DNA from: a phage
Sequence record: PZ151149.1
DNA length: 64,000 bases
Direction: 5' to 3' (one strand)
Shown: in pieces, positions 993-4,846 of the stretch
Position numbering within the stretch: position 1 is the first letter of the stretch
Layout: the number at the start of each line of letters is the position of its first letter
Program-made: the position numbers and the translations under genes
The notes under the pieces: generated by a model
What the model saw: the letters and a program-made list of their open reading frames with translations, nothing else
Told to the model about the DNA's origin: nothing
Database searches by the model: none

Positions 993-2469
993 TTAAATGT
1001 CAAACAGGTCTGTAAGAGATGCCACTTTTTCATATTGCAGCTTTGCAGCCGTGGTAATGTTCTCCAGTGGTTTGACGAAAGTCTTATTAAACAACAAAGG
1101 CCAGTCTAACCACTTTAACACCTCTGATTCAATTTCTGGTGGAATACGAGTACCAGACAACCAGCCAAAACAGATTTCTCCAAACGGATTTCGATCTTTC
1201 AGCGGTACGATCATAACTTTCTCGCCTTCGCGGATCGGATCTAGTCCATATTTGCGAGCATTGCGATTATAGCACAATACACTCTTAACCGCATACGGAC
1301 AACCCTTAATCGGATACCCGTTTGAATCGCTGTATTTCTGTAGGTTGTTTGCAGATGACACCGCAGCAACCTCAAGATAGTCAAGTTTTCTAAATTCTTG
1401 CTCAAAAATACCGTAGTATTCCTGCAATGACTCTTCACCTTCCTGCAACATACGACGAATACATTCTTTCAGTGATTTCTGACATGCTTTAGGGGTGGAG
1501 CTACGTTGCGTTTCCAAGCCCATGATTTTTAGCTTAGGTTCAGCAAAGCGCGTTCCTTCCATATCCCAAACATTAAGAGCATAACGCTTTTTACCAGTCC
1601 AGAATCCACCGATACCCGCAGATTTCAACGGAGGACCAGCAATTGCCTCGCGGTCCATAAACATCAAGTGCTCATAATTGTTCATGTACTCGCATAACTC
1701 GCGATATCCTTTGTCGATAATCGGTTCCATTCTATGTTTACCGAAATTATCAAGGAAGTCAACAAGTTTTTCGGTATCGTCGAAACGATCTTCCCCGCCA
1801 ACCTTATCAACAACATTGTTAACCAGCACATAAACGGAGTCAGTATCACAATAACGAACATATGCAAAATCGGTTGTTCCGCAAAGCTCGTTTAAGTATT
1901 CGTTAATCTTACGCTCAATCCACTGAATTGCAAGCTGACCGAACAAGGTGATCGCACTAGCGTTACGGAGATCATAAAAACGGAATTTAGGATTCCCCAA
2001 CGCACCATAAAGGGAGTTGATCAAAACTTTTCGAGAAAGCTGGTTTGTATTGCACAAGATCGACTCGTCTTTACATTCTTCCAGCAATTTCTCTAAGGCA
2101 TCTTTGCTTAATTCCGAAAGCATCGATTTAAACGCTTCATCGAAGTCATGACGCACTTCAACGCTATAGCTAATGGTTCCCCCATAAACATGATTTTCAT
2201 CGTGTAGAATCGCTTTACATAGTTCAGCATTGCGATCACATGCCAACATCATGTTTTTGTACTGCTTACGCTGATCGAATACCTTTTTAATCTCAATCGG
2301 TACGATACCATGAATATCTTTTCTATACATCCATCCGTTAGGCGAGCAAGAATACTCATCACTCGGACGTGGTGCAGTTTTATTGATATACTCGTGCATC
2401 GGTGCAGCATCAAAAGATCCAGCGATTGTTTCCGGCGAAATGTTAACCTGACGGATGATTGATGGATAC
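993..2469 (-). CDS. 43: DNA polymerase gp43, exon 2 (C-terminal part, family B polymerase)
   Basis: Translation has YGALGN and YCDTDS polymerase motifs and aligns to T4 gp43 from ~residue 410; reading frame stays open upstream of the annotated Met as YPSIIRQVNISPETIAG, matching T4 gp43 across the junction. Confidence 0.85.
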
Positions 2470-3583
2470 CATTATGTTCAGCGCGGTTCGCTACTCCCGC
2501 GCCCGTTCTCTTGCGAACTGCTACATGTCACCATGTAGATCAGACTATATCACATTCTCATAGAGAATCCTGCCATTTCGAATCGCTTGATTCTACTCTA
2601 CTCGGTTCGTTACCCTTTCGATAGTCGTTGAACAACTGCATCTTTAAGCTCATTTTGATCAAACGGTGTTCTCTTACAGTATCCGCTATAATTCTTAGCA
2701 AAAGGTTTCTTCTTACCAAAAATCTCTTTTCCTGAATTGTGTGCTTCAACAAGAAAATTCACCATTTCATCAAATGTGAAACTTGCAAATTTAGCATAAG
2801 TTTCATTACGTTTTGACATTATTTTACTCATAACTTCCGGTCGTTTAGACGCTGAATTTTCGCGTTTCTCGCCAGTATTAAATGATACCAACTCACCGGA
2901 AACATATCTAGGATCATCACAACTAACTCTAAACCGATTTCCTTCCTTATCCTTAACGATAACAGTATTCTTTAGCTTTTCTGCCATAGAATCAAGACCT
3001 TTTCGTATAGTGTCCTCATCAGCCCCGAAATATTTCTTTCCGCTCATATCGGTTCTGGCTTTTCCGGTCTTGTTTTCGGATATTTTCAGTCTAACTTCCT
3101 CTCGCTTGGCTGGGTTATTGTCTCCAGCGAATGCATCTTTGGTTAACGCCTTCACTTTATCGTCATAAGATCCTCTAGAGATGAAAGCATATGCTCTCTT
3201 GCATTCACCGTTATTGAATATTAAGCACAATAACCGATGCGCCTCGACGTGGTCTTCAAACTTAAGCCTAACAAGATTCCATTTATCTAACCGATATTCA
3301 GGGAACATTGACTTCGGGCATATATGATGCACCTCGGAATATTCTTCACCCTGATACGGATTAGACACCAGTTTAATGTAGTCGTTTAATGCTTCCTCGT
3401 TATGTATTTCGTACTTTCTTAAAATGTCTTTCATCTCGCGCCTCCAATGTATATCAATATCTATATACATTATAAGACACGTTAGCTCAAAATGCAACTG
3501 CTGCTGATTGTCTCCTTAGAGATTTCCCAGCAATTAAGCAGGTTATTCGATCACTGTCACCAGTGAAAGCCCCATATCAGTTT
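2470..3583 (-). ncRNA. Group I (IA2, T4 td/nrdB-like) self-splicing intron interrupting gene 43
   Basis: 5' exon ends ...CCCU with intron GGGG internal guide 10 nt downstream (P1); 3' part has AACGACUAUC ... GAUAUAGUCUG ... CAUGGUGACAUG ... CUGAACAUAAUG-G nearly identical to the T4 td intron core/3' end; exon joining restores SL-YPSIIRQ reading frame. Confidence 0.8.
2610..3434 (-). CDS. Intron-encoded HNH homing endonuclease
   Basis: ORF inside the intron; motif EVHHICPKSMFPEY...N...HVEAH typical of HNH; ATG at 3434 preceded by GGAGG. Confidence 0.75.
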   Translation of the reverse strand: MKDILRKYEIHNEEALNDYIKLVSNPYQGEEYSEVHHICPKSMFPEYRLDKWNLVRLKFEDHVEAHRLLCLIFNNGECKRAYAFISRGSYDDKVKALTKDAFAGDNNPAKREEVRLKISENKTGKARTDMSGKKYFGADEDTIRKGLDSMAEKLKNTVIVKDKEGNRFRVSCDDPRYVSGELVSFNTGEKRENSASKRPEVMSKIMSKRNETYAKFASFTFDEMVNFLVEAHNSGKEIFGKKKPFAKNYSGYCKRTPFDQNELKDAVVQRLSKG

Positions 3584-4785
3584 AGGGAAGTAAGGTCAAA
3601 GCTCATCATCCAACGGTAAGCATTCGGCACAGGTTCTTTTACAAATGCGCCTGGATACGTCTGCTTAGGCTGTATCTTATTTTCCGGTACTACTTTACCC
3701 TCTGCTTTCAGAGATCCGAAGATAATAGCATCCCATACTTTCATCGGATTATAAACATGGTTAAATTTAATCTTTGCATAGAAACATAGGCTATACACCA
3801 GATCAATAAAACCACGCTTTTTATCAATCGCCAGCACACGGTCAACGTCGCCGATGTTATAATCGATGTAAAGTTGATGGTTGTCATCACGCAATTTCTT
3901 TAATGGACCATCATAATCAACCTTACCGATTCCTGTCTCATATTCAGCAACATAATCTAATGCATATGTTGGTTGAGTCGTAAAGCTAAATTTCTTGTAC
4001 AGGTCAATATAATCAAGGCTTTCGATCCCCATGATCGTAAATGCTTCACGCTCATTGCCAAAATCATCCTGTGAGATTCGGGATTTAATCTTACCGCACG
4101 GGCTTAATCGGTTTGCCGTTCGACTTCCAAACTTATTACTGATACGCTTAATGATATACGGGATATCGAATGTTTCTGTGTTCCAGCCAGTGAAGCCAAC
4201 TGGTCGGTTTTCCTCAAAGAATCGGATGTATTCTAATAGCAATTCATCTTCTGTATCATAGACGTTATAAACAACGCGCTCTACAATATCAGGTCGAAGA
4301 ATAGATTTGTTTGCTTCCCAGATTTCACCGTTTTTTCCTTTCAAATCAAATACAAAGAAACGATCATGTACGGAATCATAATGCGTAATTGCATCGATAG
4401 GATATTTCGCCTCTTCTGGTTTAGGAAATTCCGGTGCGGTGACCTCAATATCAACCCACGCTACACGGATTTTATTTCGGTCATATCGAATCTCACCTTT
4501 ATATGCATCAGACAGATAGGAGATGATAAAATCATCCATACCTAGTGCCTCTTGCCCCATTTCCCCCATCCTTTTACGCCATTTGTTGGCCTCGTTCATA
4601 GATGGGAATTTTTTAGCAATGCAAGGCTTGCCATAGATATCTTTATAATTTGTAACCATACCAGGCGCGGCATGATGAAATAATGTTGGCGTATATTCAA
4701 CGTAACGCTCTTGTTCTTGTCCAGCATCATCAATATAACGCTCGTAGATCTTATCACCTACTCGCTCACATGACAGAAAATACAT
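3584..4785 (-). CDS. 43: DNA polymerase gp43, exon 1 (N-terminal exonuclease part)
   Basis: Translation ERYID...AITHYDS...FTGWN...MSFDLTSL aligns to T4 gp43 N-terminus; ATG at 4785 with AGGAG SD (longest ORF starts at GTG 4815); the in-frame stop at 3577 is inside the intron. Confidence 0.85.
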
Positions 4786-4817: not shown

Positions 4818-4846
4818 ATTATAGGGGAATCGACTTAGTTTGTCAA
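4818..4846 (-). promoter_or_regulatory. sigma70-type early promoter upstream of gene 43 (TTGACA-17-TATAAT) embedded in an inverted repeat
   Basis: Exact -35 and -10 hexamers on minus strand; flanked by ATAGGGG/CCCCTAT inverted repeat. Confidence 0.5.

Follow-up and report, generated by a model that had tools for sequence, protein, structure and literature searches.

In unrelated phages, H-N-H nicking endonucleases reside in DNA polymerase genes of the PolA type: I-HmuI in SPO1, I-BasI in Bastille, and I-PfoP3I in Pf-WMP3. The lifestyle that pairs a polymerase-gene intron of the IA2 type with an H-N-H endonuclease is described for phages (PMC3428280). For the td intron of T4, with its endonuclease I-TevI, homing has been demonstrated, and its self-splicing is established (PMC2988022). 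A putative group I intron was noted in gene 43 of JSE, a phage of the genus Krischvirus, where a truncated derivative of a former endonuclease gene was proposed (Petrov et al., 2010, Virol J 7:292; PMC2993671). The polymerase introns of LIMEstone1, a Dickeya phage, are likewise listed as "putative" (Adriaenssens et al., 2012; PMC3296691). In Aeromonas phages 44RR and 25, gene 43 is split into 43A and 43B, with a seg-like endonuclease and an intron lacking an open reading frame (ORF) in 43B (PMC2993671, PMC2988022). Here we consider a stretch of 64,000 nucleotides (nt) from phage sequence record PZ151149.1, called the window below, in which gene 43, encoding the DNA polymerase, is interrupted at positions 2470..3583 of the minus strand. 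An earlier note, made from the letters alone, had read this interruption as a td-like group I intron carrying an HNH homing endonuclease. As far as sequence comparison can tell, it is very probably a mobile, self-splicing group I intron of the td type (IA2), inserted in motif A of a family B polymerase (PolB). It is the intact form of a previously noticed element, of an ordinary mobile-element type, with a degenerate copy known in JSE. Our literature search found nothing on the Krischvirus or ECD7 intron beyond the 2010 remark on JSE, and no paper on the intact element, its fold, or its splicing.

The source phage is an RB49-like, T4-type coliphage of the genus Krischvirus. Over region 2300..3800, 12 GenBank phages, among them G2494, kvi, JEP8, ECD7, and MIZ4/5, match it at 97-99.5% identity, and gene 43 lies downstream of the usual gp45-gp44-gp62-regA cluster. 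In RB49, gene 43 is a single uninterrupted gene of 892 codons that reads TTTGACTTAACAAGTCT|GTATCCATCAATC at the insertion point. Aligned to it, the window has an exact insert between ...CCCT (3584) and GTATCC (2469), with the length of 1114 nt that the earlier note had given. Removing the insert joins ...TCCCT|GTATCC... and restores a stop-free frame, whose product has 887 identical residues across the 892 amino acids (aa) of RB49 gp43, with zero gaps and none at the junction. The junction falls in PolB motif A, DLTSL|YPSIIRQVN, and the predicted spliced gp43 crosses it as SFDLTSLYPSIIR. Before removal, the N-terminal polymerase ORF ends ...MMSFDLTSLN at TGA 3577..3579, and the C-terminal ORF opens at ATG 2397..2399, reading MHEYINK...; the polymerase stop at 3577 and restart at 2399 that had been described are thus both present. 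The frame ahead of the second ATG is open back to the junction, as had also been proposed, where it reads (W)YPSIIRQVNISPETIAGSFDAAPM, and it is closed just beyond. These 23 codons encode the same residues as RB49 gp43. By coding alone, the junction could be moved by one base, since CTG and CTA are both Leu. It was set at CCCU|...G|GUAUCC because this is the only placement with an exon-final U and an intron-final G, and because it also matches the 3' end of td, CUGAACAUAAUG|. The start of exon 1 was set by alignment to the N-terminus of RB49 gp43, MYFLSCERVG; a mechanical ORF list opens this ORF 10 codons further upstream, at a GTG.

The splice sites follow the group I rules: the final U of exon 1 is paired to a G in P1, and the intron ends in G (2470). 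The P1 pairing suggested earlier can indeed form between the last four nucleotides of exon 1, CCCU (3584..3587), and intron GGGG (3570..3573). The first five nucleotides of exon 2, GUAUC (2465..2469), can make P10 with intron GAUAU (3574..3578). The guide is therefore 5'-GAUAUGGGG-3' (GAUAU-GGGG, 3570..3578), with 9 contiguous positions complementary to the ligated CCCU|GUAUC and wobble pairs at both junction positions. In POP12, an exon-2 change of U to C is matched by a change of A to G in the guide (exon GUAC with guide GUAU), and at the metagenome locus L018 the exon reads AUAUC, the full complement of guide GAUAU. These two cases indicate that P10 co-varies with a synonymous exon position.

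Behind the splice sites lies a covarying core. Its helices (Table 1) were assigned by homology with td across 11 introns with their ORFs excised: those of the window, JSE, POP12, LIMEstone1, KE30, PC3, and T4 td, two from YMC13/03/R2096, and two from kmuB. On the assigned structure 88.4% of the cells are paired, vs 36-45% when the 3' partners are slid by 1-3 columns, and pairs changed on both sides number 45 of 72, vs 17-22 in the slid controls. None of 500 shuffles reached any of five fold measures. P3 is 100% paired with compensatory changes in five of its six pairs (CCUGCU/GGCAGG in the window, CUAUC/GAUAG in td). Compensatory pairs in the main helix are also found in P2 (6/6), P7.2 (4/5), and P8 (4/5), and P9 has compensatory exchanges as well. 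P7 is invariant across the set and the same as in td, and the P3/P7 pseudoknot lies within a conserved P3-P9 core. The hallmark helices of subgroup IA2, P7.1/P7.2 between P7 and the 3' strand of P3 and P9.1/P9.2 further on, are all present, with P7.2 GAAUC/GAUUC aligning to td GGGUC/GACUC through compensatory changes. RNAalifold, blind to the assignment, recovers P2, P3, P4, P5, the outer part of P6, P7.2, P8, P9, and P9.1, with a compensatory change in 35 of 49 predicted pairs. The group I interpretation thus holds for the insertion, the collinear gp43, the splice sites, the guide, and the core.

Covariance-model searches need to be read against their controls. At gathering thresholds, Rfam reports nothing in the whole 64-kb window (no tRNA and no other RNA family), nor in JSE or RB49. 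In permissive mode, Intron_gpI (RF00028, gathering score 50 bits) is found at 2521..2781 with 33.9 bits (E=1.5e-6), along with a P4-P5 fragment reported separately at 3502..3532. With the same tool T4 td, a proven intron, reaches 40.3 bits, also below threshold, and the T4 nrdB intron yields no report at all. The homologue in the PC3 polymerase gene, 389 nt long, in the same codon and without the full ORF, passes the threshold at 58.6 bits. The shortfall in the window is attributed to the 0.8-kb ORF inside P6, as for td. A motif scan of the window found zero further td-like introns.

T4 td and its endonuclease I-TevI share with this locus the P1-P9.2 layout with P7.1/P7.2, an ORF looped out from P6, and an endonuclease ribosome-binding site (RBS) hidden in a hairpin, a predicted one in the window. 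The two introns agree exactly in P7, J8/7, the P9 loop, and the last 12 nt at the 3' end. The host gene is different (thymidylate synthase in T4, DNA polymerase here), as is the endonuclease, GIY-YIG in T4 and of the H-N-H type here; and while the td ORF stops at the edge of the 3' strand of P6 (P6'), the window ORF reads on through P7 into P7.1. The td-like 3' core segments pointed out in the earlier note, AACGACTATC, GATATAGTCTG, CATGGTGACATG, and CTGAACATAATG, do occur verbatim in T4 td, but td is not the nearest relative. Compared with td, the intron is 65% identical in its 3' half and 49% in its 5' half, whereas the 3' half is about 74% identical to the polymerase introns of POP12 and LIMEstone1 (Ackermannviridae).

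These closer relatives occupy the same place. The introns of the Ackermannviridae (LIMEstone1 with its "I-LimII," Kuttervirus, and PC3) and of Pectobacterium phage POP12 interrupt the same nucleotide of the same Leu codon, D-L-x-S-L|Y-P, and the introns of POP12 and the Ackermannviridae share the P1 of exon TCCCU and intron GGGG, although phage families and hosts differ. Ribozyme identity to the window is 72-75% for LIMEstone1 and PC3 and 66-74% for POP12; endonuclease identity is 35% for LIMEstone1 and 57% for POP12. LIMEstone1 differs by a larger P7.1 and P8 and by a second insertion further down the gene, and PC3 by lacking the full endonuclease ORF. Table 1 of the LIMEstone1 paper gives I-LimII as "GIY-YIG" (PMC3296691). 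RefSeq names its ORF an HNH endonuclease, and given the 35%-identity alignment with the H-H-N-H-H family of the window, the published family assignment looks wrong. JSE is the closest case of all: it has the same genus, insertion site, and intron, with 99.8% identity over the shared 464 nt and one mismatch in P9.2, but lacks 650 nt of the ORF that is full-length in the window. The systems of SPO1, Bastille, and Pf-WMP3 share with the window an intron with an H-N-H-type endonuclease in a conserved polymerase motif; sequence searches detected no similarity of the endonuclease to I-HmuI. Phages 44RR and 25 also have a T4-type PolB gene interrupted by mobile DNA, but there the protein is in two pieces and the endonuclease is free-standing, whereas the window has one intron with its own endonuclease and coding that would be continuous after splicing.

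The ORF whose presence in the intron had been claimed is intact, sits in the P6 loop, and encodes 274 aa. The "HNH" label given to it is not supported by any Pfam model. It matches PHROG 12434, named "HNH endonuclease," at E=1e-130, a name that is annotation only. Scanned singly, neither the query nor 29 homologues match Pfam HNH families at E<=1, and none of 43 homologues in a set of 5.8 billion proteins has a Pfam domain. The ORF has NUMOD3-like repeats, and weak Pfam matches to NUMOD3 occur in 7 of 30 sequences, the best at 2e-4. PDB sequences were searched with the sequence alone and with a profile of 30 sequences, and yielded matches at chance level only. The label rests instead on a motif, E34-x-H36-H37...N53...H62...H66, and on T4 MobE, which across this motif matches the N-terminal 60 residues at 36% identity (E=1e-7). 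Residues Y19, E34, H36, H37, P40, H62, H66, and L69 are invariant in the 30-sequence alignment, and N53 nearly so. In an AlphaFold model (predicted local distance difference test, pLDDT, 88.8; predicted template modelling score, pTM, 0.45), H36 and H37 lie on a strand, a second strand spans 54-58, and H62 and H66 lie on the next helix, so that the modelled layout is beta-beta-alpha-metal. By motif and predicted topology, and not by a curated HNH family match, the enzyme is of the H-N-H type and MobE-like. In all homologues whose context was examined (POP12, LIMEstone1, KE30, and two metagenome contigs), it separates the exonuclease half of a T4-type or ViI-type PolB from the polymerase half, at the same DLxSL|YP site.

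The end of this ORF overlaps the ribozyme. Its last 11 codons (10 sense and the stop) run through P6', J6/7, P7, and P7.1: the codons for AVVQRLSKG-stop, GCA GUU GUU CAA CGA CUA UCG AAA GGG UAA, are at once P6', J6/7, the 5' strand of P7, and the start of P7.1. At the protein level, about 37 homologues show their strongest conservation outside the catalytic motif in the C-terminal VVQRLSK. The nucleotides that encode it are also conserved in the ORF-less introns of YMC13 and kmuB, which indicates that the constraint acts on the RNA and that the protein tail VVQRLSK follows from it. The overlap also means that a ribosome completing the endonuclease ORF must unwind P6 and P7.

The perfect sigma-70-type promoter upstream of gene 43 is the likely source of an early, intron-containing pre-mRNA, and the RB49 record annotates a hypothetical early promoter at the equivalent place; a scan for sigma-70 promoters inside the intron found nothing above shuffle expectation. 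The RBS that the earlier note had assigned to the endonuclease, GGAGG, is there at 3441..3445, but it is predicted to be fully paired within a hairpin and so sequestered. Equivalent RBS hairpins, made from different sequence, are found in POP12 and LIMEstone1. In POP12, in L018, and at a second metagenome locus, L017, a perfect T4 late-promoter motif, TATAAATA, stands upstream of the endonuclease start, and in POP12 it sits in the 5' arm of the RBS hairpin. For I-TevI, I-TevII, I-TevIII, and Aeh1 mobE, early transcripts keep the RBS hidden and late ones expose it (PMC2988022). Just 5' of the window's hairpin, TTTGAGCTAACGTGTCT lies at 3476..3492 (minus strand). It was considered as an I-TevI-like operator and rejected: it has 13 of 17 matches to the RB49 homing site TTTGACTTAACAAGTCT, but 7% of shuffles do equally well, so the match is not significant. 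The match ends at the position equivalent to the insertion point, which is reminiscent of the I-TevI operator, and GAGCTAACG is conserved in POP12 too.

Within Krischvirus the element is polymorphic: it is intact in 12 records, JSE has the same intron minus 650 nt, and RB49 and many others have none. The JSE deletion is not a multiple of three; it takes out the catalytic motif and spares every ribozyme helix, and the 6-nt direct repeat AAGAAT at its borders suggests that it was microhomology-mediated. Four intron-carrying and five intron-less phages were compared over 700 nt on each side of the site. Fixed differences are found only at -9, -6, -5, -4, and -3 of exon 1 (CTTACTTCCCT vs TTAACAAGTCT). 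All five are silent, together they create the CCCU strand of P1, and they include a codon-family switch of Ser, AGT to TCC, which is unreachable by single synonymous steps. TCCCU at this place is common to POP12, LIMEstone1, L017, and L018. The simplest reading of this exon signature would be that a very short donor tract was co-converted and then retained because P1 requires it. The presence/absence polymorphism, the insertion site fixed across phage families, and this short signature point indirectly to homing into the intron-less allele. A long co-conversion tract was rejected, as polymorphisms outside -11 to -3 are common to intron-carrying and intron-less phages; any longer tract would thus have been erased by recombination. 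On the other side of the site, silent substitutions are densely clustered at +4 to +43 (window ~2427..2466) in the intron-less phages Makalu_002, kaaroe, and 011D4; neither RB49 nor Whisky nor any intron-carrying phage has this cluster. It could mark target variants that resist the endonuclease.

Other explanations of the interrupted gene have to be weighed against this evidence. A free-standing endonuclease gene could have made two cistrons of the polymerase (...DLTSLN and MHEYINK...), giving a two-subunit enzyme without any splicing, as in 44RR/25 or Aeh1 nrdA. Mechanical ORF calling does yield two pieces, the earlier note having warned of just this, and all GenBank records of the sister phages annotate two "DNA polymerase" coding sequences; moreover, split forms of gene 43 exist in other T4 relatives (PMC2993671, PMC2988022). 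However, such an enzyme would drop YPSIIRQVNISPETIAGSFDAAP, the second half of motif A, though the 23 codons are in frame, encode RB49 residues, and vary mostly at third positions: in the 69 nt from the 3' splice site to ATG 2399, four of five changes among intron-carrying phages fall there. No Shine-Dalgarno sequence precedes ATG 2399. The non-coding sequences on either side of the endonuclease ORF form a covarying group I core homologous to td, and JSE, which lost the endonuclease gene, kept all the ribozyme helices. A split polymerase is therefore extremely unlikely. PolB genes are also frequent hosts of inteins, and the insertion lies in a conserved motif, so an intein or another protein-level insertion removed after translation was considered. 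But in the exon-1 frame a TGA follows two codons into the insert, the exon-2 frame closes immediately ahead of the junction, and the endonuclease ORF has a start and an RBS of its own; the in-frame stops exclude an intein.

The element could also be a decayed intron, of group I descent but splicing inefficiently, with polymerase made at a low level or with the help of a host or phage factor. Some phage introns, such as td, need protein or ribosome help in vivo, and both the sub-threshold Rfam score and the degenerate promoter motif of the endonuclease are compatible with decay. On the other hand, all the core helices are intact, P7 and the J8/7 region are the same as in td, and the low score is attributable to the ORF within P6. 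In addition, the element is present at 98-99.8% identity in 12 independently isolated viable phages, and gene 43 is indispensable to phages of the T4 type. We therefore regard decay as very improbable, and favor a functional self-splicing intron. Several points still weigh against this preference. The Intron_gpI score of the window falls short of the curated threshold. The covariation set has a mere 11 members, several of them close relatives or partly redundant, and basing the structure on the window sequence favors the unslid register. The late-promoter motif of the window is degenerate, TATAATGT at 3463..3472 in the 5' arm of the hairpin; the endonuclease promoter may thus be weakened or different compared with those of POP12, L017, and L018, and the late-promoter step is uncertain for the window. 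Finally, the literature calls the JSE intron "putative," and in the window we infer both splicing and cleavage from sequence.

By analogy with the systems above, a course of events can be proposed for the intron, covering splicing catalysis, the activity and target of the endonuclease, and the timing of its expression. Gene 43 would be transcribed early as a single pre-mRNA, with the intron RNA folding into the P1-P9.2 ribozyme. Guanosine would attack after exon U3584, paired to G3573 in P1. The freed exon 1 would then attack after the terminal G2470 while P10 keeps exon 2 in place, and ligation would give ...UCCCU|GUAUCC..., an mRNA translated into the normal 892-aa gp43. On this early transcript the endonuclease RBS would be locked in its hairpin, and, as for I-TevI/II/III, translation would take place only from a shorter, later transcript. 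Such late-only translation would matter because the end of the ORF lies in P6'-P7-P7.1, so that translation and folding exclude each other on one RNA. In a mixed infection, the endonuclease would cut or nick an intron-less gene 43 near DLTSL|YPS, and repair from the intron-carrying genome would copy in the intron and a short stretch of exon 1.

A bolder view can be entertained, though we think it rather doubtful. Throughout this polymerase-intron family, where the codons for VVQRLSK at the end of the ORF double as the J6/7-P7 sequence of the catalytic core, the ORF and the ribozyme core might be deliberately interlocked, so that, together with the RBS hairpin, each RNA either splices or makes endonuclease, never both. 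Joined to a possible operator mimicking the homing site, this would amount to a self-timed switch, and the intact element might serve as a late weapon against co-infecting intron-less Krischviruses, and not merely as a neutral parasite. The intron endonuclease of PhiPA3 is reportedly such a weapon against a co-infecting phage.

Other introns were met along the way. The L017 locus (ENA ERZ27260095, contig k141_49174, 4900..8200), from a metagenomic T4-like phage, also carries the gene 43 intron, at the identical site. A short exon piece follows, and then about 3 kb of inserted ORFs, including a NUMOD3 endonuclease-like gene on the opposite strand, break up the polymerase gene a second time before DNA_pol_B resumes. 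Acinetobacter phage YMC13/03/R2096 (L009 1342..1949) has two tandem Rfam-positive group I introns (78.8 and 96.6 bits) in a stretch without annotation that precedes the terminase gene, and the phiKZ-like Pseudomonas phage kmuB (L010 1441..2280) has two (88.9 and 78.2 bits) after the ORF of an RNA polymerase subunit. None of these four introns is annotated in the records concerned.

Table 1. Coordinates of gene 43, the probable intron, its predicted helices, and associated features in the window.
Feature	Position	Strand	Basis or remark
Gene 43 (DNA polymerase) exon 1	3584..4785	minus	ATG 4785 to second base of the Leu codon in DLTSL
Probable group I intron, subgroup IA2 type, 1114 nt	2470..3583	minus	insertion vs RB49, Rfam score, covariation
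Intron ends			5' start AAACUGAUAUGGGG; 3' end CUGAACAUAAUG, terminal G at 2470
Gene 43 exon 2	993..2469	minus	starts G|TAT CCA TCA (YPSII...), stop codon included
Homing-endonuclease ORF, 274 aa	2610..3434	minus	ATG 3434 to TAA 2610; PHROG 12434 match and motif
Ribozyme 5' half	3492..3578	minus	homology with td, pair counts, RNAalifold
P2	3561..3566 with 3551..3556	minus	GUGA loop
P3	5' strand 3537..3542 with 3' strand 2569..2574	minus	
P4	3527..3532 with 3502..3507	minus	
P5	3519..3522 with 3511..3514	minus	
P6	5' strand 3492..3501 with 3' strand 2632..2641	minus	
Ribozyme 3' half	2480..2641	minus	homology with td, pair counts, RNAalifold
P7	5' strand 2621..2626 with 3' strand 2543..2548	minus	all 6 pairs same as T4 td
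P7.1	2604..2615	minus	
P7.2	2589..2593 with 2580..2584	minus	
P8	2563..2568 with 2554..2559	minus	
P9	2532..2538 with 2521..2527	minus	GUGA loop
P9.1	2515..2518 with 2505..2508	minus	
P9.2	2497..2503 with 2480..2486	minus	
Perfect sigma-70-type promoter, TTGACA-17-TATAAT	4818..4846	minus	upstream of gene 43
Predicted 18-bp hairpin burying Shine-Dalgarno GGAGG (3441..3445)	3437..3481	minus	-20.8 kcal/mol, z=-3.4
Endonuclease segment deleted in JSE, 650 nt	2697..3346	minus	flanked by direct repeat AAGAAT

The finding leaves the current understanding of group I introns unaltered. It does expose an annotation error in at least 14 public phage records, which show two "DNA polymerase" fragments and a hypothetical protein in place of one spliced gene 43 with an intron-encoded endonuclease. 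The parts most worth experiment are the core segment with its double coding, the RBS hairpin seen across the family, and the exon signature of five nucleotides; the short silent signature and the segment that is both ribozyme and ORF offer material for studies of co-conversion, of target immunity, and of how translation and splicing conflict. One genus presents three stages of the homing cycle: the empty site (RB49), the intact element (the window, ECD7, kvi, and others), and the decaying copy (JSE). Beyond Krischvirus, Straboviridae and Ackermannviridae have the same intron family at the very same nucleotide of PolB motif A, a distribution which indicates that it has moved between phage families.

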